This document shows, piece by piece, positions 1-64,000 of a stretch of 64,000 nt of DNA. Under the pieces are notes generated by a model, which saw nothing but the letters and a program-made list of their open reading frames with translations, ran no database searches and had not been told where the DNA came from. Source of the DNA: an uncultured bacterium (GTDB lineage Bacteria; Armatimonadota; Abditibacteriia; Abditibacteriales; Abditibacteriaceae). The stretch is taken from assembly GCA_963843795.1 (NCBI GenBank), contig CAWJLW010000006.1, positions 1,860,001 to 1,924,000 on the forward strand. The letters are read 5' to 3'. Position numbers and translations under genes: made by a program. How positions within the stretch are numbered: position 1 is the first letter of the stretch; each line of letters begins with the position of its first letter.

Positions 1-550
1 CGCCGCTTATCGCGTGGAAACGCTTTTAGACGAAATGCGACGCGAACAAAACAGCGGCGCGCCCGGCTGTCAGGCGTTGCTGTGCCACTTGTTTTGTACC
101 TTGATGATTCTGCTGTCGCGCGAATGGCAAAAACAGAACGCCGCCTCTGCGACAAACAGCGCTGCAAGTACTTGCAGTGCGCAAAAATCGCAAACTGCCG
201 CACCGCACGAACGCGGCGATGTGGTCGGCGAAGCGATTGCGTGGATCGAAGAAAATTATGCGCGTCCGGTGCGCGTTTCTGATGTAGCGTCTCATGTTGC
301 TCTCAGTGCGAGCCGATTGTCGCATGTTTTCAAAGAGCGCACAGAGCGCGGCGTCATCGAATATCTGCACGAATATCGCATCGCGCGCGCGGCGCGATTG
401 CTGTGCGAAACATCCCAAAGCGCGCAAAATATCGCGCAACAAACCGGCTTCGGCGACGCGCGCTTTTTTCATCGCTTGTTTCGCCGTCACACCGGCTGCA
501 CGCCAGCCCAATTTCGCCGCCAATTCCAAGATACCGAGATTTTGGGTTGA
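1..550 (+). CDS. AraC-family transcriptional regulator (5'-truncated by window)
   Basis: C-terminal double HTH (VASHVALSASRLSHVFKERT...IAQQTGFGDARFFHRLFRRHTGCTPAQFR); the frame is open to the window edge. Confidence 0.9.
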   Translation, partial: AAYRVETLLDEMRREQNSGAPGCQALLCHLFCTLMILLSREWQKQNAASATNSAASTCSAQKSQTAAPHERGDVVGEAIAWIEENYARPVRVSDVASHVALSASRLSHVFKERTERGVIEYLHEYRIARAARLLCETSQSAQNIAQQTGFGDARFFHRLFRRHTGCTPAQFRRQFQDTEILG

Positions 551-620
551 ATTGGTGCGCTGCAAGTACTTGCAGCGCGCAATTCGTGCGGCAAGCGCGC
601 AAATATCACACACTATTCTT

Positions 621-1801
621 ATGATTCCTTACGCAGCGTTCAGGCGCGACAAAGTGTTCACGAAAAAGGACGAGCCGTTGCGCGTTTACGGCACGCTGGG
701 CGATGGCGAACTGCAAAAGCGCGTCACGGGTGCGATTATCGAATGGTGTTTGCCGCCCGATGTGCGCGACTTCAATTTCGATTTGCTGGACGGCGAAACG
801 CACAGCATCAGCGATGTTCTTTCGCACGCTTCCAACGTGCCGTTTCTGGCCGAGCGGCGCGTGATTCACGTCACGCGCGCCGAAGCGCTGGATAATCTCA
901 ATCGCACGGGCGGCGGCGAAAGCAAAGCCAAAAGCAAAACTTCGCCCGCCAAACATCTGAGCGAAGGTTTGAAAAACCTACCGCCGACAACGGTTTTAAT
1001 TTTGTCGCGCACGCCGGAATAGATTCGACCCAAGCGCGCGCAAAAAAGAAAATCGCTGCATCAATGCCGCAGTCGATAAAGCGCTGGAAGATTCCAAAGG
1101 CGGCGCGGGCTTGATTATCGACTGCTCGATGAACCCGAAAAGCGCGTCCACGATTGTCGCGATGCTGGAAAGCGATGCCGCCGAACAAGGCGTGGCCGTC
1201 GAGCGCGGCGCGATTAATTACTCTGGTCGAGCGCGCGGGCAGCGATGTGGCGTTGTGCGCCAACGAATTGGAAAAGTGCATTTTGCGCGTCGGCGTGGGC
1301 CAGACCGTGACGCGCGCGGTCGTCGAGGAAATGGTGAAAGCCAGCGTGCAAGACACGGTTTTCACGCTCGTCGATGCGATACTCGAAGGCAAAAGCGCGC
1401 GCGCCATCGGTTTGATGCGCGAACTGAGCCAGAACAACGAACCACCGGAACTGATTCTCTCCATGCTTTCCAATCAACTGCGCCAACTGCTGCAAGCGCG
1501 CGCCTTATTGGATGCGCGCCTGCCCGTCGCCGCCGCTTCGTTCGCGCGTTTATCGCCCGAACTGGCCGCGCAAATGCCGGACGGCAACGGCAGCTTGCGC
1601 GGCTCGCTGCAATTCATGGCGTGGAAAGCGCGCACCTTGGAATCGCAGGCGCGCAACTTATCAACTGCCAAAATCGAACATGCGCTGCATTTGTGTTTTG
1701 AAGCCGATTTAGCGCTCAAAGGCATCGAAGGCGATGGCGGCTTGGAAGGCAAAAATCAATCGGCGTTGCTGGTGGAATTGCTGATCACGAAAATGGCATA
1801 A
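621..1801 (+). CDS. holA: DNA polymerase III delta subunit, split by two apparent +1 frameshifts (~1020, ~1221)
   Basis: DFNFDLLDG...PFLAERRVI N-terminus, then LVERAGSDVALCANELEK...VFTLVDAILEG...EADLALKG. The three segments lie in consecutive frames. Confidence 0.8.
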
Positions 1802-1806
1802 ATGTG

Positions 1807-1845: not shown

Positions 1846-1853
1846 GGTTACGT

Positions 1854-3584
1854 TTACTGCCCTTGATAAACGCGCACCCAATCAACATACATATCGGCGC
1901 GGCCATCGTAGCGCGATAAATCGACCGGCCAACCGCCGCCGGTCGCGAGGTTAATCAGGAAGTAGAACGGATACTCTTTGGACGCGGTCATCGTTTTGTG
2001 GCGCGCGACTTCGATGTTGTCGCAGTAGTAAATCGTATCGGTTTCGGTGATTTTGCAGCCGTAAGTGTGCAAGGCTTCAAACCACGTCGAAGGAATGCCG
2101 AACTTCTTCATTTCGATGGGATTGTTCAAGGCTTTGACGGCGACGGTTTCCATCGCTTTGCCGGTTTCGCCCTGATTCCACGCGTGGGGCGCGATCATAT
2201 ATTTGTCGTAAGCGTTGGGCGAACCCGGGCCTTCGCCGCCGTAGGCTTCGATAATGTCCAATTCATCGACCGGAATTTCGCCATCTTTCTTGCCGTTGTT
2301 CATCGCCGTCATGTAATCGGTCATCAGCCAGAACGCGGGCCAGGTGCCAATCGCGTTCGGGCCGATAAAGCGGCACTCGAAATAACACGGCAGTTTCGCC
2401 GTGATGCCTTTGGCATCGTTGTGAAGCGAAGACAGCAAACCCGCGCTGTTCTTTTTGGCATCAGCGCGAATCCGCAAATACGAATCGACTTGCAGAAACG
2501 GATTTTGCTCGCTTTCGTAATCGGAAAAGCGCAGACTGCTGAAATCCTGGCTGCCGTTGGGCGGTTTGTGCGCGTAATAAGTCGATTTGCTGTCGTTGCC
2601 AATGGAAAGCGGCCCGTTAAAATCATCCGCGAAAACCAGTTTCATGCCTTTGGCTGCTGGTGGCGCAGCGGGCAAACCCTGATTCCAAACCACGCCGCCT
2701 TTGTTGTAAAGCTGCAAATAGCAATGATCGGTAAAGTCGCCGACGGTTCCGGTGAGCGTGACGGTAATCGGGCCGTGCGGGAATTTGTCGGCGGGAAAAA
2801 CGAAGCTGCCTTCGCCTTTGGCATCGAGCGCGACGGTCGCGATTTTCGCATCCGAACCGAACTGGCCGCCCGCTTTCCAACTGCTCGCCGTCATTTGCGT
2901 GAAGCCCGGAGCCGCAAAATTCACGCGCGTATCGCCCTGCACTTCCGCGCCGTAAGCGGGCGAAACCACGCCGACCTGCGCGCCCAAAGTTTCCACCGCG
3001 CTTTTCTCGGCCACAGCGCGCACGCTATCGAAATACAAATCGCTTTCCAGCGGTTTCTGGCTGCTGTTGCCAACTTCGAAAGTCATCGAAGTAATCGGAT
3101 AATCAATCTTGTTGTTCTTATCGCCGCCCCAGGTTTCGTGCGGCGCGTCCAAATCAAGATTAATTTCTTTCCAGCCTTTGAAATCAACCGTCAGGTTTTT
3201 CGGGTCGCGGAATTTGTGGGTTTCGCCTTTGACGTCGATAAGATAGATTCCCAGGTTGCACTTCGAGCCGTCGCCCAACATCATCCAACTGAGCTTGTGA
3301 ATCGGCGCCAAAATTCTGGTATCGACCGGAACGCCGAGATATTCGCCCGCTTTTTCGCCGGTGAATTTGTAATGCAGATGCAGCGCGTTTTTGCCATCGC
3401 GCGTTTGCGCGCCCGATAAATCGACGCTCGCGTTTTCGTTGGGAATATTGACGACCCACACTTTCAAAGGCGCGGTGAACTTTTCGAAATCTTGCACCGT
3501 GATTGGCACGGCGGGCGGCGCGGCCAGTACTTGCGAGGCGGTTGCGCTCGCTAAAAAACCAATCGACCGTACAATACGTTTCAT
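1854..3584 (-). CDS. Secreted GH16-family glycoside hydrolase with N-terminal carbohydrate-binding-like domain
   Basis: Signal peptide; LVFADDF, GTWPAFW, catalytic ELDIIE (ExDxxE), NLATGGGWP, MYVDWVRVYQ. Confidence 0.85.
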   Translation of the reverse strand: MKRIVRSIGFLASATASQVLAAPPAVPITVQDFEKFTAPLKVWVVNIPNENASVDLSGAQTRDGKNALHLHYKFTGEKAGEYLGVPVDTRILAPIHKLSWMMLGDGSKCNLGIYLIDVKGETHKFRDPKNLTVDFKGWKEINLDLDAPHETWGGDKNNKIDYPITSMTFEVGNSSQKPLESDLYFDSVRAVAEKSAVETLGAQVGVVSPAYGAEVQGDTRVNFAAPGFTQMTASSWKAGGQFGSDAKIATVALDAKGEGSFVFPADKFPHGPITVTLTGTVGDFTDHCYLQLYNKGGVVWNQGLPAAPPAAKGMKLVFADDFNGPLSIGNDSKSTYYAHKPPNGSQDFSSLRFSDYESEQNPFLQVDSYLRIRADAKKNSAGLLSSLHNDAKGITAKLPCYFECRFIGPNAIGTWPAFWLMTDYMTAMNNGKKDGEIPVDELDIIEAYGGEGPGSPNAYDKYMIAPHAWNQGETGKAMETVAVKALNNPIEMKKFGIPSTWFEALHTYGCKITETDTIYYCDNIEVARHKTMTASKEYPFYFLINLATGGGWPVDLSRYDGRADMYVDWVRVYQGQ

Positions 3585-3644
3585 CGTTGTGTGTTGCTCC
3601 TCATTTCGTGGTCGCTTTGGCTTCTGCAAGTACTTGCAGCGCGC

Positions 3645-5025: not shown

Positions 5026-5502
5026 TTAATTTTCGCTGCGGTCACGCCACAACGCGCTCGCGCTTAAAGCGCTTGCCAAACTGATATACAACATCCAAAT
5101 CGAGCGTTTCGATAAGTGCGCTTCAACGCCCGGTGTCAGGCGCGGCGGCACGATTTTGTAATCAATCACCCACGCCAGAATCGCCAAGACCGACGCGCAG
5201 CCGACCGTTTTGGCAACGCTTTCGCGGCTTTTGGTGAAGGCGCGCATCGCTTCGAAAATCACGCCCCAGCTAATCATCGCGCTGTCGTTAATTGCCAAAC
5301 CGACGACGCTATGTTTCAAATCCAAACTTTTGGCTTCGAAGGCTTCGTCGTCCCACGCGATATGCGAAATGGCGTTGATGGGTGCGATGGCGTTGCCGTT
5401 TTCAATTTGGCCGCGCACGGCCATTAAAGCCGCGCTGCTGATGGCCGCGACGGTTCCGCTTTTCAAACCATCGGCAAGTACTTGCATCGGGGAAATTTTC
5501 AT
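5026..5502 (-). CDS. Hypothetical membrane protein
   Basis: PINAISHIAW...DYKIVPPRLTPG; ATGA overlap with the upstream gene. Confidence 0.7.
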   Translation of the reverse strand: MKISPMQVLADGLKSGTVAAISSAALMAVRGQIENGNAIAPINAISHIAWDDEAFEAKSLDLKHSVVGLAINDSAMISWGVIFEAMRAFTKSRESVAKTVGCASVLAILAWVIDYKIVPPRLTPGVEAHLSKRSIWMLYISLASALSASALWRDRSEN

Positions 5503-6626
5503 TTGCTCAGTCTCCAATCATCAATAATTTGGCCGTTGTCGGCAATTTGGCGCACGCGCAAAAAGCGCCCTTCGATATCCATTTGCGTGAACGAATAGCG
5601 CGCGTTGGCGAAGGTGTTGGTTTGGTCGTTGGGATTTTTGCGCGCGTATAAGCCCGCGCCACCGGCTCCGGTCACGACGTAAATCACGCCGTTTTGAACT
5701 TTCGAACGGCTGTAAACATGATCGTGGCCGTTGAACACGATGTCGATTTTCAAACGCGAAAACAAAGGCATCAGCGCGCGCGTGCGCGCTTCGTTGCCAT
5801 GCAAACCTTCCGAAATCGGCGGATGATGAAACACGACGAATTTCCACATTTTGTCGCTCGCGTTCATATCGCGCGTCAGCCAGCGTGATATTGGGCCAGC
5901 AAGTACTTGCGCCCGCGCGTTGGAATCTAAAATCGCGATGTGCGCGTCGGCGTAATCGAAAGAATAGTTGCGTTCGGGCGCGATTTCGGGTGGTCCGTTG
6001 CGCGGCAAAACGAACGCATCGAGCCACGGACGACCATTTTGCGTAATCACATCGTGATTGCCCATCGAACCGTAAAACGGCACGCGCGCCAAAGTCGGCG
6101 CGTAAATCGAGAAGAATTTCGGATCGTAATCGCCCGCCGCGCCGCGCGGATAAATCAGGTCGCCAGTGTGCAACAGCAAATCGGGCTTAGCGGCTTCGAT
6201 ACTTTTGGCGAGCCGTTTTTGTCCGCTGCTCGCCTCGCCCGAATCGCCCCAAATCGCGACGCGAAAACGCTGTCCCGCGCTTTTATCGGTTTGAAACGTG
6301 CCCTGCGAAAACCAATTCCCGTTGCTGCCAACGCGATACAAGTAGTTTGTATCGGCGCGCAAACCGTTGAGCTGCACGTTGTGGCGATTGGCCGTTTTGC
6401 TATCGCGGCGCGAATGCCACGATTTTTCATCGGTGCGGCGAAATTCTAAAACCGTCGAAAGCGGGCGCGCTGTGTTCCAAATGAGATACGCGGAATTTGT
6501 GGTGGTATTTTGCAGATAGGGCGCGCGCGTGAGAGTTTGGGTGCTTTGCGCCTGACAGCCGACAGTTGGAAAAAGGCTGCAAGCGAGCAGCAAGTACTTG
6601 CAGGAGATTTTTGTGGTTGCGATCAT
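5499..6626 (-). CDS. Purple-acid-phosphatase-like metallophosphoesterase, exported
   Basis: FN3-like N-domain; GDSG, GDLIY, GNHD, HHP and GHDH motifs; signal peptide. Confidence 0.9.
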   Translation of the reverse strand: MIATTKISCKYLLLACSLFPTVGCQAQSTQTLTRAPYLQNTTTNSAYLIWNTARPLSTVLEFRRTDEKSWHSRRDSKTANRHNVQLNGLRADTNYLYRVGSNGNWFSQGTFQTDKSAGQRFRVAIWGDSGEASSGQKRLAKSIEAAKPDLLLHTGDLIYPRGAAGDYDPKFFSIYAPTLARVPFYGSMGNHDVITQNGRPWLDAFVLPRNGPPEIAPERNYSFDYADAHIAILDSNARAQVLAGPISRWLTRDMNASDKMWKFVVFHHPPISEGLHGNEARTRALMPLFSRLKIDIVFNGHDHVYSRSKVQNGVIYVVTGAGGAGLYARKNPNDQTNTFANARYSFTQMDIEGRFLRVRQIADNGQIIDDWRLSK

Positions 6627-6677
6627 GCGATTCAGTATCGCAAATGAGCGCTGCAAGTACCTGCAGCGGCGTTTTTC

Positions 6678-7465: not shown

Positions 7466-10400
7466 ATGTCCGATTCTTCCCGTTCTTCCCAACGCCGCGA
7501 TAAGCGACGCGATGCGCGCCAAGTGGCGCGTCGCGGCAACATGAGCGGCTGGAAGCGACTGGCTGCTGTGCGTCGCCTTAATGCGCTACGCACGGCCAAT
7601 CGCAGCGACAGTTCGGACGCCCAGCGCGGCCACAGTTCGCAGCACGGTCGCACGCGCGATTTTTTCAAGAGACACCCCGAAACGCGCGGCCCACGCGGAA
7701 TGCGTTTTCTAGGGTTTCTGGTCGCTTTCGCTCTGATTTTCATTGTGGCTCGCCATTATGTTTTGCAGCGCATCGACCCCAATAATATCGTTCAAAATCA
7801 AGTCATTCCCGCGCTGGAAAAACAGCTGGGTAAACGGGTGGAAATCGGGCGCGTACAAACCGATTATCTCGACCGAGTAATTATTGACGACATCGTGATT
7901 GGGCGTGACCCGACTTCGCCCATCGGCGCGCTGATAAAAATTAGTCGCGTCAGCGCCAGCATCGACTTCATCCGTGCCGCGCTCAATTCGAGCGATCCGC
8001 TCAGCGCCCTCAAAAGTGTCACGCTTTTCAATCCGCAGCTCGATCTCAGACGCGATAGCAAGGGCCGTTTGAATGTGCTGGAGCTGGTCAAAAAAGACAG
8101 CAAAGGCCCGTCGGTAAAATTGAACTCAACCTTTTTTATCGAAAAAGGGCGTATTTTTTATACGGACAAAACCATTCGTTCGCGCGGTCAAAACCTGCGC
8201 GTCGATGCGCGCGAAATCGGCGGACAAGTCGCGCTTCACGGCATGCGCCCTACGACCTATAACTTGCAACTGCCCGCGACTTATTTTCCCAGTGTCGCGA
8301 AGCCGGTTCGTGACATCACTACGCTCGGAGAAGTCGATGCCGATGGCCAATGGGCACTGGCCGATTTTAATTTGCCCTCCGCGCCGCTGCCATTATTAGC
8401 GCGCTGGGCCGACCCCGCAGGCCAAGTCAATTTCAGCGGCGGCACGCTGGGGGCGAAAGTGCAAGTCGGTTACGACGCCGCTGTGGTGCCCGCTGAACAA
8501 TGGTTGGCGCGCGGCGATATGACGGTGCGTAACGCGCGCGGATTTACGCGCGCTCTGATCGAGCCAAATACCAAATCTCCACTACAAATTGATGATCTGG
8601 ACGCGCAATTGGGCTTCGACAATCGTTCGCTCACGATTCGCTCGCTGCAAGTACTTGCAGCGGACTCCACGCTCCAGGCGCGCGGCGCTATCGCGTTTCC
8701 CAAACCGCTGTGGCCGCGCAAGACCAATCAAAAGTTGAACCCAATTTTCGATGTCACATTGAACAGCGACGATTTGAATGCGCCGCGTTTTCTGAATTGG
8801 CTACCACCAACTTTATCGCGTCAATATCGCATCACGACCGGACGCGCCAAAATCGACGCACGCGTGCGCGGCAATCTGGATGAATCGCGCGTTTCCGGTG
8901 TGTTGAACACGCTCGCCACGCGAGTTTCAGCGAACGCGTTGAATGTGCAAAGCGCAGCTCTGCGCTCACAATTCGATGTGCGTTTGCAAGCGCCAAACAC
9001 TCGGTTGCGCGGGGGTCGCGGCACGATTTCTCTGCAAACTCCGCTTCTGCAAGTACTTGCAGGCGGAAATTCGCTGCGCGGTCAAAGTTTGAAAAGCGCG
9101 TGGGACTTTTCTTTCGCGCAGCAAGCGCAAAAGTGGAATGGCAGAGCGCGGGGCGAATGGACGCTGCAAGAAGCGCGTGCAGGCGTCAGCGGCATTGATG
9201 CCCAACTGCAAAGCGTGAGCGGCAAAAGCGATGGAGCAATGAGCGGCGCAGCCCTTCAAGCGCGGGTTTCCCTGAACAGCGGCGCTGCGCTCGTGAATAG
9301 CAACGCCATCGGGCGCGCACGCACCAACACCTTACAAAGCGCTTTTTGGTTCGATGGGATGCTGGGACAAGGCCTGAGCGGGCGCGTTGGTGGCGCGCTG
9401 ATCGGCAACAATTTCAGCGCGTTCAAAGCTCGACTGGGCAGTGCCCGCACACCAAAAATTCAGCTGAGCTTTGGCGCTTCCAACCTCGCTTTGACGCCCG
9501 CTGGCCCACAGTTGCGCGGATTGCAGGGAACTTTAAATGGACGCGATCTCGCCGTTTCAGCGGCAGGTTTTGGTAGTGCGAAAATGGCCAGCGCGCAATC
9601 GAGCTTGGAAGCGCAAAGCGTTTTATTCAACGCGAACGGCCCGCAAATGCGTGGGCTGATAGGCAATTTCAACTGGCGAACCTTGACAGCGCGCGCACCG
9701 CAAATCGCGACCGCACAAACTGGCGATGGCGCGGCGATTTTCACAATGGACGCGTTGGAGAGCCGCCGCGCGCAAAACCTGCGCGTAGCGTTGCGTAGCG
9801 GTAGTTTTCAAATCGTGACGCCGCGCGCAGGTCGTCTGAATGGCGACGCGGCGCAAATCTCGTTGCAAACCGAATCGTTTCAATTGGCAAATGTGGGCGC
9901 GGCGGTGTGGCGCGGCGATGCTTCATGGCGCGGAGTCGATGCCGCACGCTTACAGTTGGCCAAACTCTCGCCCCAAGCCGCGCAGCAAATTCAGAACGCG
10001 GGCCGTTCGAGTGGACGCGCGCAGTTCAGCGGTTTGGTATTCAACCGCGTGGCCAGCGCGGTCGATGTCAATAGCGGCGCGTGGTGGCGTTCTTTGCCGC
10101 AAATCACTGGTGAAGCGACCGTCAATAATGCGCGTGTCAGCGATTACGCTTTGGCTGAAGCGCGTGCGCGTTTTTCCTTGAGTGATGGCATTTTAAGTGT
10201 GGACGCCAACCAGATCAGTCGCGATGCCGGGCCGCTGCGCGCCGCGTTTCGGGCCAATTTGCGCGGAGGCTTTCGCGATGTGAACGCCCTGGGCGCGCGC
10301 GTCGATATCAATGTGCCCAACATCAGCGTTCCCGCAAGTCTGGCGAATCCGTATTTGCGCAATTTGGGTTTGCGGGCCGAGGGAATTTTGCGCGGTAGCC

Positions 10401-15503: not shown

Positions 15504-15897
15504 AAATTTTCCTTAAAAAATTACCTGCGCCTAATAAAAATGAACCCGATATGTAAACTGCCGTCTACAGCGGCCAACAAGGACCCGATTTTCGTTTCTG
15601 TTGTGATGAAGTTGAGATGAAGTTGAGAAATTTCTTATCGCATTCACTCTTGAATTCAGATATAAGTACTTGGTAGGCAAAGTTGAGTTCGATAATTTGC
15701 GATTTTGGGAACTCTGCAAGTACTTGCCACAACTTTCTGAATCCTCAGTTCGCGCCTTTTTCCATCAAAACCCCGGTGCAAGTACTTGCCGGGGCTTTTG
15801 TAGCAAATAACGCCAATTCTTGAAGGCTTCAGTTGGTTTTCGGCCATTGAAGTTGTCCGTTAGATAGTTGTTCGTTTTCAGCAGTTACGAGGTTTTT

Positions 15898-19119: not shown

Positions 19120-19132
19120 ATCCAAGCTCGTA

Positions 19133-19164
19133 AAATGCCCTTGCAAGTACTTGCAAGGGCATTT
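19133..19164. terminator. Palindrome-cored hairpin terminator after bamA
   Basis: Perfect 32-bp palindrome AAATGCCCTTGCAAGTACTTGCAAGGGCATTT. Confidence 0.75.
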
Positions 19165-19170
19165 CTACAA

Positions 19171-20171: not shown

Positions 20172-20451
20172 AAGGTTCTACCTAATTCAATTTTCGCTTG
20201 ATTTTTCGACTGCAAGTACTTGCCACGCGGCACAAGTTCCTGCTCAACTGAGCACAGAATTTTCTGCATGTTCTGCAAGCTCGTTTCGCACGCGTTACGC
20301 GCACGCGATTTTTGCATGCACGATTTGTGCGGGCGCGACATGGCAAAAATTGTATCACATGAGCGCACGAAGTGAGCGCACATAGACCCACAAAACGGCA
20401 TTAAGTTGGGGAGACGAGACAAAGTATCGGCAAAGTTGCTACAATTTTCTC

Positions 20452-39079: not shown

Positions 39080-39123
39080 CTTTTGGTGGCGCGCATCACC
39101 AAATCGCTGGCGATACTCTCATT

Positions 39124-40834: not shown

Positions 40835-40876
40835 GGGAAAGGAAAATTAAGGTGGCAAGTACTTGCCATGCGATTT

Positions 40877-44540: not shown

Positions 44541-44704
44541 AAACTGAGATTACCCATTGCGAAGACGATTGAAACTCGACGCGGAAGGACGAATAATTTT
44601 GTGAGCGGCAACTTTGGTCGTTCACAAAACGTCCAATTCGACAATTATAATATACGCAAGTACTTGCCGCTCAATTTTAAACTCATTTATTGGATAGTCA
44701 TTTT

Positions 44705-45619: not shown

Positions 45620-45640
45620 AAAACAAAAGCTAACGTCGCA

Positions 45641-45676
45641 AAAAAGCGCCCTGCAAGTACTTGCAGGGCGCTTTTT
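45641..45676. terminator. Bidirectional palindrome-cored terminator
   Basis: Perfect 36-bp palindrome AAAAAGCGCCCTGCAAGTACTTGCAGGGCGCTTTTT between convergent genes. Confidence 0.85.
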
Positions 45677-45693
45677 GGGTTGTTCAAAATTTT

Positions 45694-47157: not shown

Positions 47158-47212
47158 GGTTTGTCCTTTATGGCGATGTGCGATTCTGCAAGTACTTGCA
47201 GCACGTTATCTT

Positions 47213-51120: not shown

Positions 51121-51220
51121 GAAATGCCGAATTTCAATGATGAATTTCATTGGAATTCGGCATTTTTCGTTTACGATATTCCAAAAAACATCCTGCAAGT
51201 ACTTGCAGGATGTTTTTTGG
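51121..51220. terminator. Tandem terminator hairpins after the tRNAs
   Basis: AAATGCCGAATT...AATTCGGCATTTTT, then perfect 40-bp palindrome CCAAAAAACATCCTGCAAGTACTTGCAGGATGTTTTTTGG (51181-51220). Confidence 0.8.
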
Positions 51221-51272: not shown

Positions 51273-51845
51273 ATGATTTTGCAACAGTTACGCGATATCA
51301 CACACGACGCTCATCGACAATTGGAGGGGCGCGTTAATTTGCTGGGGCGAGAATGGTCGCTCGAATTCTATCGCGCTCTGCTGGAGAAATTTTACGGTTT
51401 CTATGCACCTCTCGAACCAGCAATTTTCGCTCATTTGCAATGGCAGGATTGGAATTTCGCTGTTGAACCGCGTCGCAAAATTCATTGGCTGCACAGAGAT
51501 TTACAATTTCTGGGTTTGAGCGCAGCGCAAATTTCGGCTTTGCCGCACAGCAAGTACTTGCCACGCGCCGATAATTTCGCGCGCGCCGTGGGCTGTGCTT
51601 ACGTTTTGGAAGGTTCGACATTGGGCGGGCAAATCATCGCGCGTCATTTGAAAAAACAGTTGAACTTACCATCCGACGGGTGTCGATTTTTCGCAGCTTA
51701 CGGCGAACGAACTGGCGCGATGTGGCGCGAATTCGTCGCGCTGCTCAGTGATTACGAAACTTCCCAAAAGGAACGCTCCGAATTGTTGGAAAGCGCGCGC
51801 ATGACATTTGGCGCATTGGAATGTTGGTTGGGGAAAACGTTGTGA
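51273..51845 (+). CDS. bphO: Biliverdin-producing heme oxygenase
   Basis: LRDITHDAHRQLE, YVLEGSTLGG, FFAAYG..TGAMW; directly upstream of a phytochrome. Confidence 0.9.
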   Translation: MILQQLRDITHDAHRQLEGRVNLLGREWSLEFYRALLEKFYGFYAPLEPAIFAHLQWQDWNFAVEPRRKIHWLHRDLQFLGLSAAQISALPHSKYLPRADNFARAVGCAYVLEGSTLGGQIIARHLKKQLNLPSDGCRFFAAYGERTGAMWREFVALLSDYETSQKERSELLESARMTFGALECWLGKTL

Positions 51846-54783: not shown

Positions 54784-56529
54784 GTGCCGTGCAAGAACTT
54801 GCAGAGTGTTCTACGAAGTAAAGGAAATACCATCGCCAAACTGCGCATTCTTTTATTGGAAGACAGTCCGTTAGATGCGGATTTAATTATCGACCATCTC
54901 GATAGTGATGGGCTGCGCTGCGACGTGATTCGAGTACAAACGAGTGCCGAATATACCCACGCACTGGAAGAATCGAGCGTATCGCATAACGGTTTCGATT
55001 GCATTCTGGCCGATTACACTCTGCCCGGTTTCAATGGCATCAGCGCGCTCGAATTGGCGCGCGAAAGGTGTCCGCAAATTCCATTTATCTTCGTTTCCGG
55101 TCAATTAGGCGAAGAGCTTGCCATCGACACACTCAAGCGCGGTGCTACCGATTACGTAGTAAAAAATCGACTGGCGCGCTTGGTGCCAGCCATTAAGCGC
55201 GCGCTGGGTGAAGCACGCGCGCGCAACGAACGAGTGCGCATCGAAAGCACGCTGCGCGTTTTGTCTGAGGCCAGTCTGGTGTTATCATCGTTGGATTACG
55301 CCACGACTCTGGAGCACGTTTCTCGTCTGGCCGTTCCGCATTTCGCCGATTATTGTGTGGTTGATGTGTTGGACGAAAACGATTCTCTCAAGCGCGTAGC
55401 CGTCGCACACGCACGTCCGGAATGCGAAGCATTAGCGCAGCAGTTGATGAACTTCGAGCCGCTGCCGCACGAACATCCGGTGTGGGAAGTTATCACGTCG
55501 GGACGTTCGCAGATTTTTACCGATCTGACGGACGGCGCTTTAAGCACGAGCTTTCACAACGAAGAACACAAAGCCATTCTCAAAAAATTGGGTTTTTACT
55601 CCTGCATGATAGTGCCTTTAATGGCCGAAGGTAGCGCGCTGGGCGTAATGATTTTCGTTTCGGATTCGCCTTCGCGCCGCTATCAACCGCTGGATACCAC
55701 GCTGGCCGAAGATTTGGCTCGGCGTTGCGCACTGGCGGTCGATAACGCGAAGTTGCACCAAAAAACTCTCGAAACGCTGCGCGCGCGCGATGAATTTCTG
55801 GCGGTTTTATCGCACGAGCTGCGCTCGCCGCTCACTTCCATACTGGGATGGATTCATCTGCTACAAGATGAAGGTCTCGACGATACGATGCGCCGTCATG
55901 GTTTACAAGTCATCGAACGCAACACCAAAGCGCAAGCGCAACTCATCGAAGATTTGCTCGAAGTTTCGCGCATTATCACAGGCCGCATGCATTTAAAAAT
56001 GGCGCCGGTTGATATGACCGACATCGTGCAAACTGTGATGAGTTCGATGTTGCCCGCCTCGCGCGCCAAAGAAGTCGAATTGAATTTTACGGTGCGAGCC
56101 ACTTCGACAATTGTTCAGGGCGAAGCCGCGCGTTTGCAACAGGTGGTATGGAACCTGGTTTCCAACGCCATCAAATTTACGCCCACCGATGGACGCGTCG
56201 ATATCGAACTGGAAGACGACGGCAAATTTTTGCGTTTGGAAGTGCGCGACAGCGGTCAGGGCATTGCGCCCGAATTTCTGCCCTTTGTTTTCGACCGCTT
56301 TCGTCAGGCCGATAGCAGCAGCACGCGCCAACATGGCGGCTTGGGTTTAGGTTTATCTATTGTGCGCCATATCACCGAAATGCACGGAGGCACTGTCCAC
56401 GCTCACAGCGAGGGCGAAGGAAGCGGCGCGGCTCTCAGCGTGCGCTTGCCACGTCGCAGCGTATCCGAAGAATCCAATGCGCAACCCTACTCGGAATTTT
56501 TAGCCCAGACAGTTTCATCTCCCGCTTGA
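54784..56529 (+). CDS. Hybrid sensor kinase (REC-GAF-HisKA-HATPase)
   Basis: ILLLEDS...ADY..P, GAF region, SHELRSPL, NLVSNAIKFT, GGLGLGL; start codon uncertain. Confidence 0.9.
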   Translation: MPCKNLQSVLRSKGNTIAKLRILLLEDSPLDADLIIDHLDSDGLRCDVIRVQTSAEYTHALEESSVSHNGFDCILADYTLPGFNGISALELARERCPQIPFIFVSGQLGEELAIDTLKRGATDYVVKNRLARLVPAIKRALGEARARNERVRIESTLRVLSEASLVLSSLDYATTLEHVSRLAVPHFADYCVVDVLDENDSLKRVAVAHARPECEALAQQLMNFEPLPHEHPVWEVITSGRSQIFTDLTDGALSTSFHNEEHKAILKKLGFYSCMIVPLMAEGSALGVMIFVSDSPSRRYQPLDTTLAEDLARRCALAVDNAKLHQKTLETLRARDEFLAVLSHELRSPLTSILGWIHLLQDEGLDDTMRRHGLQVIERNTKAQAQLIEDLLEVSRIITGRMHLKMAPVDMTDIVQTVMSSMLPASRAKEVELNFTVRATSTIVQGEAARLQQVVWNLVSNAIKFTPTDGRVDIELEDDGKFLRLEVRDSGQGIAPEFLPFVFDRFRQADSSSTRQHGGLGLGLSIVRHITEMHGGTVHAHSEGEGSGAALSVRLPRRSVSEESNAQPYSEFLAQTVSSPA

Positions 56530-56591
56530 AATTTGAATCTTTCAATTCCCAGCAAGTACTTGCTGCGAATTGAATTGGTTTTTGAGCTACG

Positions 56592-56626
56592 AAAATGGCC
56601 CCGCAAGTACTTGCGGGGCCATTTTT
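56592..56626. terminator. Bidirectional palindrome-cored terminator
   Basis: AAAATGGCCCCGCAAGTACTTGCGGGGCCATTTT between convergent genes. Confidence 0.82.
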
Positions 56627-57421: not shown

Positions 57422-57562
57422 TCCTACCTCCACAAAATAAGCCCAAAGCGCGTCCTGTTAACGATCTCTGCGCGCTTCATGCTTTCATCCGACGCATCGG
57501 TCTCCGGCAGGTTGTGCAGTTTCACCTTAAGATTCGTTAAGTTTTGTCAAGCAGGCAACGAA

Positions 57563-57594
57563 AAAAGCCCCCGCAAGTACTTGCGGGGGCTTTT
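57563..57594. terminator. Palindrome-cored terminator after the GH127 gene
   Basis: AAAAGCCCCCGCAAGTACTTGCGGGGGCTTTT. Confidence 0.82.
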
Positions 57595-57611
57595 GGGAAG
57601 TTAATTATTGG

Positions 57612-60239
57612 TCACGCTTTCAAAGCGCGCACTTGCAAATTGGCGAACGCCACGCGCGGTTCTTTGGCTTCAGCGCCGTAATGACGCACGCCGACTGCGC
57701 CAAATTTGTAGCTGTCATCGGTGGCTTCGATAATCGGCGTTTCCATATCATCGACCCACACTTTGATTTGCGCGCCCTGAGCTTCGACGCGCACCCGACA
57801 CGCTTTTTGCGCGTCCAGAGTTTTTTGAGCTTGTTTGATTTCCGTCCATTTGCCATTGGCTTTGCCCAAAACCACGCGATTGGTCGCCGCTTCAATGCCA
57901 ACATAATAGCCCTGAAAATTATCTGCGCCAATCGCGATTTTCTCGATGCGAAACAGCAAACCGGCATCGCCTTTTTCGCCCGTTATCACGTCAGCTTCAT
58001 AAACGCAATCGCCAAAGCGCGCTTTGGGCGCGATCGCTTGCGCCGTTCCCAGATGCGAAGCGGGCCACAACTTCTCGTCGCGTACAAACCAGCCGCCGCC
58101 GTAGAACACCCAATCATTCAAACCCTGCTTCTTGAAATTTGCGTTCCATGTCAGCGGCATTGGATCGGGTTCTCCGACGATTGGAAAATCGGTCACGCGC
58201 AGCATTTGCGCGCCAAAAGGTTTCAACGTGACGGTTTCAATTGGCTCGCTTGAAGCGACCGGACTTACGGGCGGATCGAAAGCGTTGTGGCCGTTCCAAA
58301 TCAGCGACCAGTCGGGAATTTTGCGCGCGCGCGCCGTTAAACTCAGCGGCGTTTGCGTCGGATCGAACGGGTTTTTCGTCATGCCCACGCGCTGCACAGC
58401 AAACGTCGTATTCGGCACCAGACCGTAATTCCACGGACTCTCTGGCGCAATTGTGAATGGCTCAAAACCTTCGCGAGGCGTGTTGTCTTTGTCATCAGCG
58501 ACCTGCCATTTTTCCTCGATGCCCAGCGCGAAAATCAACGGCCCGTGATGCACCGAAACCGAATCATTGACACCGCGCACGGTACGCGTCTGCATCGGGA
58601 AACGCAGCGTTACAAGGTCGCCATCTTTCCACTGGCGCTCAAGTGTGGCGAAACTATTTGGCGTCAACTTTTGCGAACGTCCATTGATTTGAATCGCCGG
58701 TTTTTCGCACCAACTCGGCACGCGTAATTGCAGTGGAAAGCGTGTGGGTTTGGACGTATTAATGGTCAGATGAATCGTTTCCTCGAAGGGGTAATTGGTG
58801 TCGCAAACAACAGAAACCGTGTTGCCCTGAATGCGGGTGCTGACCTGAGAAGGCAAATATGTGAGCAAAGCAAGACCGCCATTGGCGGTCGCAGCCCAAC
58901 TATTTTGCACCAACTTGGGCCAACCCATGTGCAGGTTGTAACAACAGCACGGATAGCCCGAAATCGGTGCGGGCGTGCGCGCATCGTGATAATCCTGAGT
59001 GAAGCCCAGACCGCCGCGCGGCGCGGTGACGCTGTTAGGCAAAGTGAAATAAACGTGTTGATGAATATCGCGGCTGAGTGCAGCGGGCAAAACATTGAAC
59101 GCAATTTGTTCGATATTATCGCCAATGGATGGCGCGCCAAAAACGCGCAGAGCGACTGCTGTACTGAGCAGGCGCTCGACAACCGAGCACGTTTCGATGC
59201 CTTCACCCGAACTGCGTCCGGCCAGAAATTCCGTGCCCGAATTCATGCCGACCGATAAGCCATGATCGGTCATTAAATGCGTGTTGCCCGCGAAAAATGC
59301 CGCGCGGTCGGCAGCGCTTTTGGAACGCTGCCAATAGGTCACCGGCATTTTCAACGCTTGCGGCACATTGACGCCGTGTTTGGGGTGATAATCATCACCG
59401 TAAGTTAGAAAAAGATTGTCACTGAAGATTTCGCGCCACGGATAGGCTTGATTGTGCAATAAATCGGCGACTTCGAGCAGCGAACTTTCGCCAGTGCGAT
59501 TGTATAACCACAAAACTGTATCAATTTCATCGCCCGCACGCGCCTTGCCCCAATCGCGCAACGGTCGCGCGGGCATATTTTTGCTCACGAACTCGTAATA
59601 CCTGCTGAGAAATGGCAACACACGCGCATCCTCTGTCGCTTCGTAATAATCACGCATCAGCCAAGTCACGACCATGCGCGGCCACCAATCATCATTATTT
59701 TCCGGACCGAAAAATCCATCCTCACGCTGACTTTTTAAAATCGCCTCAATCCACTTTTGTGCGCGCCCTTTCAATTCCTCGTCGTTCAAGGTATAAGCTA
59801 GCGTGACCAAGCCTTTGAGATAATACGGCCCTTTTTCCCAGTTTTCGCCTTCGCCGCCCAGCCATGCGCTTTTTTGCACCGCAGGCAGCAGTTCCGGCGC
59901 ATGACCGGTCAAGCCATCGCGCTGCAATTCCAGTTGTCCCAACGCCCAACCACGCGCCCGCACACTGCCCAACGGCAAAGCACTAAAGGGAACGGGCTGC
60001 AAAGGCGCGCGATTAGTGAATACATTGTTTTTCGCACCCGCAAGTACTTGCGCCGCGTTTGTGGCTGGCAGCGCGCTTTGTCCCACCGCCGGACGTGCGA
60101 GCCATAACGCGCCCAATGCACCCACAGACACGCCAAGAAAATGGCGGCGCGATAAAGAACGTTCTGCAAGTACTTGCAGGGTATCGTTGGCTTTGGTGTC
60201 TTCGATCCAGCGCGTTTGAAAATGGTGGGAATGATTCAT
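57612..60239 (-). CDS. Tat-exported GH127-like (beta-L-arabinofuranosidase) glycoside hydrolase with C-terminal DUF1080-like domain
   Basis: SRRHFL Tat motif; HGVN, ETC, PCCCYN motifs; TNYPFE, LRVPSW. Confidence 0.82.
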   Translation of the reverse strand: MNHSHHFQTRWIEDTKANDTLQVLAERSLSRRHFLGVSVGALGALWLARPAVGQSALPATNAAQVLAGAKNNVFTNRAPLQPVPFSALPLGSVRARGWALGQLELQRDGLTGHAPELLPAVQKSAWLGGEGENWEKGPYYLKGLVTLAYTLNDEELKGRAQKWIEAILKSQREDGFFGPENNDDWWPRMVVTWLMRDYYEATEDARVLPFLSRYYEFVSKNMPARPLRDWGKARAGDEIDTVLWLYNRTGESSLLEVADLLHNQAYPWREIFSDNLFLTYGDDYHPKHGVNVPQALKMPVTYWQRSKSAADRAAFFAGNTHLMTDHGLSVGMNSGTEFLAGRSSGEGIETCSVVERLLSTAVALRVFGAPSIGDNIEQIAFNVLPAALSRDIHQHVYFTLPNSVTAPRGGLGFTQDYHDARTPAPISGYPCCCYNLHMGWPKLVQNSWAATANGGLALLTYLPSQVSTRIQGNTVSVVCDTNYPFEETIHLTINTSKPTRFPLQLRVPSWCEKPAIQINGRSQKLTPNSFATLERQWKDGDLVTLRFPMQTRTVRGVNDSVSVHHGPLIFALGIEEKWQVADDKDNTPREGFEPFTIAPESPWNYGLVPNTTFAVQRVGMTKNPFDPTQTPLSLTARARKIPDWSLIWNGHNAFDPPVSPVASSEPIETVTLKPFGAQMLRVTDFPIVGEPDPMPLTWNANFKKQGLNDWVFYGGGWFVRDEKLWPASHLGTAQAIAPKARFGDCVYEADVITGEKGDAGLLFRIEKIAIGADNFQGYYVGIEAATNRVVLGKANGKWTEIKQAQKTLDAQKACRVRVEAQGAQIKVWVDDMETPIIEATDDSYKFGAVGVRHYGAEAKEPRVAFANLQVRALKA

Positions 60240-60374
60240 ATTTGCCTTTGTATAAATTGATTGAATGCAGATAGACCTCTTGAGTTTGTGCGCGTTGCAG
60301 AACGCCAACTGCTCCTGCAAGTACTTGCCGCGCGGTTAAACTAAACACTTCTTATTAATTAACCGGATTAAGTT

Positions 60375-63300
60375 ATGACGACTTTTGAACTTTTGGACAC
60401 GCTGCTTAAACAACGCATTCTGATTCTCGATGGCGCCATGGGAACCACACTGCAACGTCACAAACTGGGCGAAGGCGATTATCGCGGAGTGGAATTTCTC
60501 GAACATCTGCATGATTTATTGAACAATAACGATGTTCTCTCTTTAACTCAGCCGCACTTAATCGCTGATGTGCATCGCGCTTATCTCGAAGCGGGCGCGG
60601 ACATTATCGAAACCAATACTTTTCAGTCCAACGCCATTGATATGGGCCATTTTGGTCTGGAAGATCGCGTTTACGATTTGAATGTTTCCGGCGCGCGTTT
60701 GGCGTGTACGGCGCGCGATGAATTTACATCGCCCGAAAAGCCGCGTTTCGTGGCCGGCGCGATGGGGCCGCTCACTAAAACTCTGTCATTGTCGCCTGAA
60801 GTCAATGATCCGGCTTTTCGCGCCGTTGATTGGGATCAGGTCGTCGCAGCTTACCGCGAACAAGCGCGGGGCTTGTTGGATGGCGGGGTCGATATCCTTT
60901 TAGTCGAAACCACTTTCGATACGCTAAATTTGAAAGCCGCGCTGTTTGCGATTCAAGAAGAATTTGATGCTCGTGGTAATAGCGTTCCCATCATGGCGTC
61001 GGGCACGATTACCGATGCCAGCGGACGCACCTTGAGCGGACAAACTTTGGAAGCGTTTTGGACTTCAATTTCGGGCGCGCCGTTGTTCTGCGTCGGCTTG
61101 AATTGCGCGCTGGGGCCGGACGAATTGCGCCAGTATGTCGAAGAATTTTCACGTTTAGCACCCATTTACACGCATTGCTACGCCAATGCCGGTTTACCCG
61201 ATCCTCTTTCCGAAACCGGCTTTCCCGAAACGCCACAAAGCATGGCGCCCAAAGTCGCGGAATGGGCGCGCAACGGCTGGCTCAACATTCTGGGCGGTTG
61301 CTGCGGCACGACGCCGCCGCACATCGCGGCGATGGCCAAAGCGGTTGAAGGCATGGCGCCGCGCGTGCCGCCCGCGCCCGATCATTTGTCGCGTTACAGC
61401 GGATTGGAAACCCTTACGCTGCGGCCTGAAAGCAATTTCATCATGGTCGGCGAACGTACCAATGTCACCGGTTCGCCGAAATTTGCGCGTTTGATTCGGG
61501 AAAATAAGCTCGAAGAAGCCTTGGAAATCGCGCGTCAGCAAGTCGAAAACGGCGCCAATATCATTGACGTGAACTTCGACGAAGGCATGCTCGACGGCGA
61601 AGCGATGATGACGCATTTTCTGAAACTACTGGCCGCTGAGCCGGACATTTCGCGCGTACCACTGATGATTGACAGCTCGAAATGGAGCGTTATCGAAGCC
61701 GGTTTGAAATGCGCTCAAGGCAAATGTATCGTCAATTCTATTTCATTGAAAGAAGGCGAAGCAGCATTTCGAGAACGCGCCAAGCTAGTGCGGCGTTACG
61801 GCGCGGGCGCAGTTGTGATGGCTTTTGACGAACAAGGCCAGGCCGATAATTTTGAGCGCCGCATCGAAATTTGTCAGCGCGCCTATGATATTTTGGTCAA
61901 TGAATGCGATTTTCCGCCGCAGGATATTATTTTCGACCCGAACATTTTGACCGTCGCCACCGGTTTGGAAGAACATGTCAATTACGCGGTCGATTTTCTG
62001 CGCGCCACTAAATGGATTAAAGAAAATCTGCCGCACGCCAAAGTGTCGGGCGGCGTGAGCAACATCTCGTTTTCATTTCGCGGCAACAATCGCGTGCGCG
62101 AAGCGATGCACGCGGCGTTTTTGAAACATGGCGTCGATGCCGGTTTGGATATGGGCATCGTCAACGCGGGAATGTTGGAAGTTTACGAAGCCGTCGCGCC
62201 CGATTTGCTCGAAGCGGTCGAAGACGTTTTATTGAATCGTCGCGCCGATGCTACTGAACGATTATTGGAAATGGCCGAGCGCGTCAAAGCGGAAAGTTCG
62301 GGTGAAGTGGCCGAAGTCAAAACCGAAGCGTGGCGTGAAGAAACGCCCGAAGAACGTTTAAAATATGCTTTGATTAAAGGCATTGATTTATACGTTGAAG
62401 CTGACGTTGAAGAAGTGCGCGTGCGTTTTCTGGAAGCGGGCAAAAAGCCGCTGGAAGTGATCGAAGGGCCGCTGATGGACGGCATGAACGTGGTCGGCGA
62501 TTTGTTCGGCGCGGGCAAAATGTTTCTGCCGCAAGTCGTGAAATCGGCGCGCGTGATGAAAAAAGCCGTCGCGATTTTGCTACCTTATATGGAAGCCGAA
62601 AAGCAGCGCACCGGTGCGCGCGCTCAGGGCAAAGTGCTTCTGGCAACGGTGAAAGGCGATGTGCATGATATTGGCAAAAACATCGTCGGCGTGGTTTTGG
62701 GCTGCAACAATTACGAAGTGATTGATCTGGGCGTGATGGTATCTTGCGACAAAATTTTGCAGACCGCGCGCGAAGAAAACGTTGATGTGATTGGGCTTTC
62801 GGGCTTGATTACGCCGAGTTTGGATGAAATGCAGCAAGTCGCGCGCGAAATGCAACGACTGGATTTTCAATTACCGCTGCTGATTGGCGGTGCAACAACC
62901 TCGCGCATTCATACCGCCGTTAAAATCGCGCCGCATTATGAGCGCCCGATTATTCATGTTCTGGACGCCAGTCGCGCGGTCGGCGTCGTCAGCCAACTTT
63001 TATCGGACGATCAACACGATGAATTTATCGAGCGAATTAGCAACGAACAAGAGCGCGACCGCACGGCGCATTTGAATAAACGCGATAAAAAACCGCTGCT
63101 GTCGATTGAAGAAGCACGCGCGCGCAAAAATCCTATCGAATGGAAAAGCGAAGACATTGCCTCACCACCGTTCACTGGTTTCAAGGTGCTGCAAAACATT
63201 CCCTTAGAAGAATTGCTGCCGTTCATCGACTGGACACCGTTTTTCAACGCTTTTGAATTGAAAGGTTTGTATCCTGAAATTTTCGAGGATGAAACGGTTG

Positions 63301-64000
63301 GGGAACACGCCAAGAATTTGTTTGACGATGCACAGCAAGTACTTGCGGGCATCGTGCGCGGCAAACGTCTGCGCGCCAATGCGGTTTACGGTTATTACGC
63401 CGCCAACGCGGTCGGCGATGATGTTGAAATTTACGCGACCGAAGCGCGCGATAAAGCGGCAACGACATTTCATTTTCTGCGCCAGCAAATTGATAAAGCC
63501 GAAGGGCGTTTCGACAACAGCTTGGCCGATTTCATCGCGCCCAAAGAAACTGGTTTACCCGATCATCTGGGCGCTTTTGCGGTTACTGCGGGCATCGGTT
63601 TGGAAGAAATCGTGATGAAATACAAAAGCGCGCACGATGATTACAATGCTTTTATCGCTCAAGCTCTGGCCGACCGTTTGGCCGAAGCCACAGCCGAATG
63701 GCTTCATGCGAAAGTGCGGCGCGAATGGTATGCGCCGAACGAGGAATTGTCGAATCAGGAACTGATTGGTGAGAAATATCGCGGTATTCGTCCGGCTCCG
63801 GGCTATCCGGCGTGCCCGGATCATACCGAAAAAACGCTGCTGTTCGATTTGATGGACGTGCCGCATAAAGCGGGCATCACGCTCACGGAAAGTTACGCGA
63901 TGACACCAGCTTCTTCGGTGTCGGGTTTCTATTTCGCTCATCCGCAAGCGCGATATTTCGCGGTTGGTAAAATCGAGCGCGATCAAATGTTGGATTATGC
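60375..64000 (+). CDS. metH: Cobalamin-dependent methionine synthase (3'-truncated by window)
   Basis: My translation gives [39 protein letters not shown] and [15 protein letters not shown]. It is missing from the ORF track because it has no stop codon in the window. Confidence 0.96.

Follow-up and report, generated by a model that had tools for sequence, protein, structure and literature searches.

The closest described counterparts of the element reported here are the DNA uptake sequences (DUS) and uptake signal sequences (USS), words of 10-12 bp present in thousands of copies, with exact copies far outnumbering one-mismatch copies. According to the published accounts (PMC3630211, PMC2817400, PMC7811141, bioRxiv 2025.10.24.684340, PMC12616744), about a third of these words lie in genes (34.5% of the N. 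meningitidis DUS are coding; PMC2817400), where frame bias and peptide inflation are described (PMC2817400). They are used in terminators, are scarce in islands, new segments and rRNA genes and are evenly spaced, as expected from molecular drive (PMC7811141); flanking A/T tracts aid uptake in Haemophilus (PMC7811141), dialects vary around a core (eight DUS dialects with one core in the Neisseriaceae; PMC3630211), and type IV pilus competence genes accompany them. We report that a 64-kb stretch of an uncultured member of the Abditibacteriaceae (contig CAWJLW010000006.1, positions 1,860,001 to 1,924,000; hereafter the window) is studded with a perfect 12-bp palindrome, GCAAGTACTTGC, which shares the distributional features, the flanking A/T tracts and the competence genes with DUS and USS. 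It differs from them in being a single self-complementary word of unrelated sequence, in another phylum, with two-sided phasing to ~55 bp.

Other systems resemble the palindrome in part. HIP1 (GCGATCGC; PMC5861425, PMC13756078, bioRxiv 2024.09.10.611283) of cyanobacteria is likewise a selected, iterated palindrome found in genes and spacers, with variants in kin and proposed roles in transformation or nucleoid structure. However, HIP1 is 8 bp long rather than 12, and the palindrome described here displays species-level dialects, a strong intergenic bias and phased arms, while neither a cognate methyltransferase nor a 10-90-kb period was found for it. The SlmA site of E. coli (GTGAGTACTCAC; PMC3116907) is also a 12-bp palindrome with an AGTACT centre and outer G/C, but E. 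coli has 50 sites that are excluded from Ter, whereas here 2,567 copies are evenly spread in a genome in which no TetR protein was found. The gyrase motif, strong gyrase sites and BIME-2 (PMC6379681, PMC12324340) are symmetric, span ~120-130 bp, have arms with a helical period and match the core bases of the word; in contrast to the palindrome, the gyrase motif is degenerate rather than an exact word, the arm phase is off by ~3.6 bp, and other dialects of the word miss the core consensus. Finally, REP/RAYT elements and the NTS-SsnA repeats of Neisseria (PMC11893778) are high-copy, intergenic, hairpin-forming palindromes, whereas here there is no common element body, copies occur in frame within genes, and no flanking transposase or small GIY-YIG nuclease was found. 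In the mostly open-access literature that we surveyed, the 12-mer appeared in no paper, and nothing among the matches listed concerned a palindrome, uptake or repeat system of Abditibacteria. The system is thus undescribed in this literature, and its phased ~120-bp anatomy, the helical register of close copies and gap filling by coding copies are new.

Abundance, placement and helical phasing of the palindrome

The window contains 39 exact copies of the palindrome, from position 164 to 63346, as a first-pass annotation of the same letters had counted; none arose in 100 dinucleotide shuffles of the window. With one mismatch allowed there are 44 copies, compared to 0.09 expected. Half of the ten near-matches in that annotation do carry a single mismatch (Table 1), while four carry two and one carries three, and some of the quoted positions were off by 1-2 bases. 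The genome that holds the window (G000; other G numbers denote genomes compared with it) has 2,567 exact copies in 4.30 Mb, ~1 per 1.7 kb, on 11 of 11 contigs. Markov models of orders 2-5, trained with the motif masked, predict 0.1-7.4, so that the enrichment extends beyond the window and survives correction for composition. One-mismatch copies number only 506, and the runner-up 12-bp palindrome has only 33. Counts of the nested cores (AGTACT, 3,241; 8-mer, 2,965; 10-mer, 2,706; 12-mer, 2,567; 14-mer, 1,290) identify the 12-mer as the unit; 879 copies extend to the 16-mer CTGCAAGTACTTGCAG.

We classified 2,563 copies against our own gene calls (3,478 genes, 86% coding, on an assembly with apparent frameshifts). 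Intergenic copies number 1,795 (70%), coding copies 751 (29%) and edge copies 17, which corresponds to 2.94 per kb between genes and 0.20 per kb within them, a ~14-fold difference. The near-even split first given for the window (about 20 intragenic and 19 intergenic) becomes 16 coding, 21 intergenic and 2 edge upon recounting, and understates the genome-wide bias. Coding copies use the three reading frames 493, 143 and 115 times. The encoded tetrapeptides are inflated accordingly: QVLA occurs 564 times against 38 expected (27 for the reversed control AVLQ), and ASTC 133 times against 4 expected (2 for its control). Density is flat around the chromosome, at 184-194 sites per 300 kb in four places. 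The exceptions are segments free of the motif. The two largest gaps, 26 kb each, coincide with islands, one rich in IS elements and the other linked to a tRNA and carrying a type I restriction system. Nor does any site lie in a cluster resembling a contractile injection system (tail sheath, Pvc16, AAA ATPase; G000 C3:1-32000, L515) or in the 16S gene, the only one found in G000 and the sole basis for scarcity in rRNA.

Copies at gene ends often form hairpins. At least 5 extra perfect pairs flank 34% of intergenic copies, compared to 3% with the arms shuffled. Such pairing is seen in 71% of convergent, 29% of co-oriented and 17% of divergent spacer copies, and 64% of convergent-spacer copies combine paired arms with a T tract, making them predicted terminators. 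The palindrome is densest between convergent genes, where 271 of 408 spacers are occupied. However, 206 of 419 divergent spacers are occupied as well, mostly without hairpins, indicating that terminator use is secondary.

Intervals between copies are more even than random (coefficient of variation 0.75); pair distances of 200-1,000 bp are under-represented, and nothing else stands out up to 6 kb. No periodicity was detected between 3 and 150 kb, as 22 of 200 permutations matched or exceeded the top peak in a test that differs from the one published for HIP1. The density of coding copies rises from 0.08 to 0.43 per kb, that is 4-5 times, with growing distance to the nearest intergenic copy. This gap filling holds in a Poisson model that controls for codon score, gene length and distance to the gene end (z 6.3) and in three codon-score strata, while a control word (43 sites) shows no such effect. 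A site is thus worth more where no other lies near.

Consensus extends beyond the 12-mer as a GC-rich shoulder followed by an A/T tract 8-11 bp past the core, and A/T tracts recur on both sides at ~15, 25, 36, 46 and 57 bp from the palindrome centre. The resulting oscillation has a 10.5-bp period and is measurable for ~55-60 bp per side, also in genes. At successive turns around deep-coding copies, AA/TT frequency is 35%, 23%, 22%, 19% and 20%, compared to a background of 16%. The amplitude in these copies is 3.27 points with the first tract and 3.09 without it (null maxima 1.07 and 1.04), and hence the oscillation is not a product of that tract. In G000 the distance of its maxima from the dyad is 4.4 bp modulo 10.5, and the oscillation is equal whether the genes beside a spacer are convergent, divergent or co-oriented. 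The separations of neighbouring copies, in the range of 15-130 bp, concentrate at 9.0 modulo 10.5 (Rayleigh 25.0, n=261); the statistic is 14.2 without the 36-45-bp peak and 11.6 for distances of at least 46 bp, and the 49 coding pairs taken by themselves show no significant clustering. Since a pair phase of 9 is twice an arm phase of 4.5, the arms of two neighbouring sites would curve in one plane. In every palindromic dialect measured, the arm phase falls between 4.1 and 5.5 bp modulo 10.5, and a pyrimidine-purine step falls 4-5 bp from the dyad in G000, G046 and G116. None of 200 random sets equalled the phasing of G000 or of G046; phasing was marginal, and of a different phase, around the bipartite element of G019 described below (5 of 200). 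The whole signal is thus ~120 bp long, with an exact 12-bp core, looser GC-rich shoulders and phased A/T tracts. Dyad-locked arms and pair register together suggest that it is read as double-stranded DNA bent over ~110-120 bp. This phase, half a helical turn from the dyad, presumably resembles wrapping of the nucleosome or IHF type. The helically phased arms are invisible from the window alone.

Dialects and homologous sites in relatives

The exact 12-mer occurs at most three times in any of 300 other genomes of the phylum, and not at all in a genome of the same genus. Its family, to which the four best matches of its IF-2 also belong, nonetheless shares the core. Across 26 genomes of Abditibacteriaceae besides G000, AGTACT counts are bimodal, at 2,813-4,733 in G273, G046, G152, G245 and G116 and at 1-285 in the other 21. 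These five carry AGTACT palindromes with different flanks, and for three of them homologous coding positions are given below. The dialect TCGAGTACTCGA was counted 2,770, 2,510 and 2,261 times, CAAAGTACTTTG accounts for 13 of 26 sampled sites, and a looser dialect reads YGAGTACTCR. Two metagenomic contig sets (~70% DNA and 67% protein identity to G000) use the word CAAGTACTTG. The 12-mer is therefore the species dialect of a family-wide AGTACT core, which a view of the single window could not reach, and the dialects have diverged around it.

Four further genomes of the family iterate words other than AGTACT dialects. G019 (L127, L207, L208, L404-L413) carries AGTACGGTCGA 1,188 and 1,224 times on its two strands in 3.6 Mb, usually as a 24-bp bipartite palindrome with a 2-base A/T centre, and the centre of one copy, in an orthologue, falls no more than 1 bp away from a G000 site. 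G084, G125 and G134, which form one clade, carry the non-palindromic 8-mer CAGCCACG 2,676-3,503 times, ~10 times as often as the reversed control; as it occurs on both strands within 20-kb stretches, it is not polar in the manner of Chi there. Sampled parts of 16 of the 26 genomes held no iterated word. The parts fetched were 480 kb of G046, 260 kb each of G116 and G019, 95 kb of G273 and 18-64 kb of word-less kin, and the check for other words left aside G197, G205, G143, G259, G179, G229 and G252; given this thin sampling, an iterated word could have been missed in some kin. Word-bearing genomes do not form one clade in a GyrA-NusA-ComEC tree, the backbone of which has weak support.

Homologous coding columns reveal how sites are kept. 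At the column of a G000 site, the orthologue shows the dialect of its own genome in 5 of 10 cases for G273, 3 of 35 for G046 and 2 of 19 for G116 (less than 0.07 expected each), compared to 1 of 29 for G019 and 0 of 35 for word-less kin. The two metagenomic relatives do so in 16 of 27 and 13 of 23 columns, the search seed excluded (30 and 25 loci of the two largest contig sets were used out of 130; overlapping, short and other-prefix loci were dropped). For dipeptides shared by both proteins, the same codons are used in 23 of 27 and 16 of 19 cases inside the motif, compared to only 50 of 308 and 45 of 263 outside it, overlapping dipeptides not being independent. Sites lie in weakly conserved protein stretches (identity 0.23-0.43, compared to 0.60-0.63), and 91 of 128 coding sites in five comparisons have no alignment gap nearby. 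These alignments show that sites arise mostly by substitution at permissive positions and are kept against synonymous drift. Taken together, spread throughout the genome, scarcity in IS-rich islands and retention at synonymous positions in kin demonstrate that the palindrome is a genome-wide DNA signal under selection rather than a mobile relic. The proposal of a lineage-specific signal in the first-pass annotation is thus borne out, as is the positional conservation in orthologues that it had suggested examining.

Several further observations concern the distribution of these words. Four copies of the G019 word lie in G000 (C6:517614, C2:4219, C2:8688 and C6:2954986), and one of them borders an island that lacks the motif, a hint that members of the family exchange DNA. 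Several kin without the palindrome have almost no GTAC (6 of 17 sampled genomes at an observed/expected ratio of 0.00-0.07), so something acts on GTAC in this family. Both GTAC (0.00-0.07) and CTAG (0.00-0.09) are scarce in G084, G125, G107, G266, G033 and G003, and G003 has a single AGTACT in 6 Mb. An IMG/VR phage fragment of 68 kb and 39% GC (G302; L424-L427), with queuosine-pathway genes, carries 20 exact copies of the 12-mer in flanks of its own (mostly TGT before and ACT after), many of them at gene junctions just 5' of ribosome-binding sites. BLAST found no match above 200 bp between the viral-scan stretches (at least 134) and G000, and no CRISPR-like array that could link the phage was found in G000. 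Of the sampled words, 0.39 occur in one soil DNA run, the contigs of which thinly cover parts of the window; no RNA sequencing run among those listed holds them.

Candidate readers and competing explanations

By our analysis, the palindrome displays every distributional hallmark of the Neisseria DUS that we tested, and uptake fits best among the three roles that the first-pass annotation had raised (methylation with repair, an uptake sequence, or a site for a nucleoid or segregation protein). We accordingly favour the reading that it marks DNA as the species' own, a self tag comparable to DNA uptake sequences and accumulated by biased transformation, while judging this about equally likely to be right or wrong. 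A receptor in the type IV pilus or competence apparatus, either symmetric or able to bind in both directions, would grip the core and bend the arms in one plane, and fragments bearing a site would be preferentially taken up and recombined. Molecular drive would then accumulate sites until most kilobase-sized fragments held one, while copies at gene ends would be co-opted as the loop-proximal stem of intrinsic terminators, and changes in the receptor would shift the outer bases and raise barriers between species. A benefit per fragment leads one to expect gap filling, and a drive able to amplify any word that a receptor prefers could explain why unrelated words recur among competent-looking kin. 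G000 has comEC, comEA, dprA, eight secretin hits and a pilB/pilT/pilC/pilD/pilin locus. Several of the pil genes (G000 C6:385799-398699), like holA in the window (294-1801), are split in two frames, probably through long-read assembly errors. The class as a whole shows large expansions of prepilin/DUF1559-like genes (8 to at least 80 hits in a genome) and, in the five genomes searched, 6-8 secretin matches.

Several observations weigh against an uptake tag. The DUS-like features are all distributional, and other words read by a protein could give the same pattern. PMC2817400 describes established uptake sequences as not palindromic, although the 1,294 dyad-symmetric DUS pairs reported for Simonsiella (PMC3630211) are a partial precedent, and the flanking tracts of Haemophilus (PMC7811141) span a 31-bp motif only. 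Oscillation to ~55-60 bp per side suggests wrapping more than threading into a pore; this phasing is not significant in G116 (31 of 200 random sets) and marginal in G273 (9 of 200). An alignment gap lies near 37 of 128 coding sites, compared to a background of 7-12%, and some copies may therefore involve small indels. If the phage represented by G302 is lytic, uptake drive leaves its 20 copies unexplained. Competence genes do not separate word-bearing from word-less genomes, comEC being present in 30 of 31, dprA in 29 of 31 and the tested pilin in 31 of 31 at E 0.001; comEA and the secretins did not discriminate either. The ComP family (PF16732), the only receptor family covered by the search, was found in none of 5 genomes but also in none of 14 controls, so that its absence is uninformative, and none of the non-DUF1559 prepilins listed is basic. 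Being palindromic, and with no receptor found, the word is DUS-like by distribution but cannot be filed as a DUS.

Alternatively, the palindrome could serve as the docking site of a two-fold symmetric, sequence-specific chromosome organiser, a protein bending or wrapping ~110-120 bp that might, for instance, pin the tips of supercoils at intervals of about 1.5 kb. We regard this as possible but doubtful. The dyad-locked oscillation in deep-coding copies, its common phase across palindromic dialects, the register of neighbouring copies and gap filling are all consistent with such an organiser, and a wrapping protein accounts better than an uptake receptor for symmetric, phased arms of such length, which keeps the nucleoid-protein option viable. 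However, no candidate protein was found. The histone fold is missing from all five genomes searched, HU is one ordinary copy in G000 and likewise in kin without a word, TetR (PF00440) was found in neither G000 nor G019 (one copy each in G046 and G116), and a codon-bias hunt for an abundant basic protein, confounded by foreign genes, gave no candidate. Furthermore, an essential organiser should not come and go, as the word does among carriers that are not one clade, and neither the missing 3-150-kb period nor the non-significant phasing of coding pairs speaks for one. A SlmA site specifically was rejected, as the terminus, placed at the GC skew maximum, is not site-poor (184 sites compared to 185-194 per 300 kb) and TetR is missing from G000.

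A HIP1-like word, kept by a cognate methyltransferase together with biased repair or serving as a methylation-dependent recombination mark, is improbable in our view. The palindrome does resemble HIP1 in being palindromic and genome-wide with alternative versions in kin, methylated HIP1 raises transformation of Synechococcus according to bioRxiv 2024.09.10.611283, and the near-purge of GTAC in kin points the same way. Yet the one N6/N4 methyltransferase of G000, the nearest solved relative of which is M.RsrI, is 65-82% identical across the lineage, word-less kin included; no C5 or D12 enzyme was found in this 92%-complete genome, and its one type I HsdM lies within an island. GTAC outside the motif is depleted (observed/expected 0.66) rather than enriched, and repair bias predicts neither the intergenic preference nor gap filling nor phased arms. 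The methylation and repair option of the first-pass annotation thus found no support. The RsrI-like adenine methyltransferase gene is solitary (G000 C6:2515883-2519569, L148) and is also conserved in Abditibacterium utsteinense. Strong DNA gyrase sites, at which the sole type II topoisomerase would cut GTAC, wrap the arms on its C-terminal domains and relieve supercoils at gene ends, are a highly improbable explanation. GyrA is single and ParC missing in the 29 of 31 class genomes that gave a match, the palindrome is densest where genes converge, and the 12-mer fits all three symmetric cleavage preferences reported for bacterial type II topoisomerases (-4G/+8C, -2A/+6T and +1G/+4C; PMC12324340), gyrase sites having arms of 10.75-bp periodicity over 130 bp (PMC6379681). 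That base match was noticed post hoc, however, and would arise by chance 1 time in 64 for one hypothesis; the A/T maxima of the E. coli matrix, the only one compared, fall at 8.0 rather than 4.4 modulo 10.5 (correlation -0.53 and -0.56 at zero shift), the dialects TCGAGTACTCGA and CAAAGTACTTTG lose -4G and TCGAGTACTCGA also -2A, and no GyrA difference tracking the words was seen by eye among the alignment parts shown. Least credible is a REP-like mobile palindrome or favourite terminator spread by copying, which is already largely refuted. It would account for the intergenic majority, the hairpin extensions, a 32-mer repeated 45 times and 22 tandem doubles on the main contig, but there are 2,375 distinct 32-mers among 2,563 copies, only 24 of 5,126 25-nt arms are shared, the 751 coding copies lie in frame, mostly in ungapped columns and with synonymous conservation, and half of divergent spacers are occupied without hairpins. 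Searches revealed one weak Y1 transposase match in G000 and none in G019, two GIY-YIG matches, both in long frames and not Ssn-sized, and no Rfam match in the window except tRNAs.

Copies in the window and wider meaning

The copies in the window are collected in Table 1. An Rfam search of the window matched tRNAs and nothing else. Positions 51849-56529 encode a bacteriophytochrome with a response regulator and a hybrid kinase.

Table 1. Exact and one-mismatch copies of the palindrome in the 64-kb window, with predicted hairpins.
Feature	Position	Setting
Exact palindrome	164..175	Coding
Exact palindrome	562..573	Intergenic; arms pair 5 bp further
One-mismatch copy	3523..3534	
Exact palindrome	3626..3637	Intergenic
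Exact palindrome	5474..5485	Coding
Exact palindrome	5899..5910	Coding
Exact palindrome	6590..6601	Gene edge; 63 bp (six helical turns) before one-mismatch copy 6653
One-mismatch copy	6653..6664	
Exact palindrome	8647..8658	Coding, large AsmA/TamB-like gene
Exact palindrome	9049..9060	Coding, same large AsmA/TamB-like gene as 8647
One-mismatch copy	10753..10764	
Exact palindrome	13556..13567	Coding, TamB-like gene
Exact palindrome pair (15716, 15778)	15716..15789	Intergenic; separation 62 bp, six helical turns
Exact palindrome	17025..17036	Just 5' of bamA by our start call; inside bamA with a longer start
Hairpin centred on palindrome 19143	19128..19170	Bidirectional terminator-like, convergent bamA/pyrophosphatase; +10 bp pairing, -23.5 kcal/mol
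Exact palindrome	20212..20223	Divergent intergenic region, arms unpaired
Exact palindrome	27909..27920	Gene edge
Exact palindrome	30487..30498	Between nusA and infB; intergenic by our calls, otherwise within small RnpM-like ORF
Exact palindrome	33186..33197	Intergenic, after infB
Exact palindrome	33594..33605	Intergenic
Exact palindrome	34060..34071	Intergenic; arms pair 9 bp further
Exact palindrome	35694..35705	Inside truB; arms pair 7 bp further
Hairpin centred on palindrome 39055	39040..39082	Terminator-like; A5 before, T5 after; +13 bp pairing, -26.5 kcal/mol
Exact palindrome	40105..40116	Inside glycerate kinase gene
Exact palindrome	40855..40866	Intergenic
Exact palindrome	42650..42661	Inside mtaB; reads ASTC
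Exact palindrome	44333..44344	Coding
Exact palindrome	44656..44667	Divergent intergenic region
Hairpin centred on palindrome 45653	45638..45680	Terminator-like, between convergent genes; +12 bp pairing, -27.6 kcal/mol
Exact palindrome	47188..47199	Intergenic
Exact palindrome	49175..49186	Coding
One-mismatch copy	49937..49948	
Exact palindrome	51195..51206	After two tRNA genes; arms pair 14 bp further
Exact palindrome	51550..51561	Coding
Exact palindrome	52844..52855	Inside bacteriophytochrome gene
One-mismatch copy	54791..54802	
Exact palindrome pair (56552, 56603)	56552..56614	Intergenic; 51 bp, five helical turns; arms of 56603 pair 11 bp further
Hairpin centred on palindrome 57573	57558..57600	Terminator-like, -25.7 kcal/mol
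Exact palindrome	60040..60051	Coding; reads QVLA
Exact palindrome	60166..60177	Coding; 126 bp (12 turns) from 60040
Exact palindrome	60317..60328	Intergenic
Exact palindrome	63335..63346	Frame continues past window end

Self-specific uptake sequences are known from two proteobacterial families only in the literature surveyed, and the function of HIP1 is still debated. We tentatively propose, while thinking it somewhat more apt to prove wrong than right, that the sequence-specific DNA tags of the Abditibacteriaceae form a third family, which evolved independently and has a two-fold symmetric reader that wraps ~120 bp and whose specificity has repeatedly been shifted or replaced (giving five or more AGTACT dialects, the bipartite palindrome of 24 bp and the unrelated 8-mer). 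If so, a cytoplasmic reader would organise the chromosome in a nucleosome-like, sequence-programmed manner for which that literature has no counterpart, while one on the pilus would represent a novel type of uptake receptor.

The phased anatomy over 120 bp bears directly on the shape of the reader and, together with gap filling and dialect switching, makes the search for it directly testable. With close kin that use different words, homologous sites that switch dialect and kin without a word, the family is a natural experiment, in which two questions can be put to the test: whether biased uptake is enough by itself to spread a word through a genome, and how the specificity of a reader can change while thousands of sites follow. 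The words can also serve as barcodes of species in binning, and transforming these bacteria may require them.

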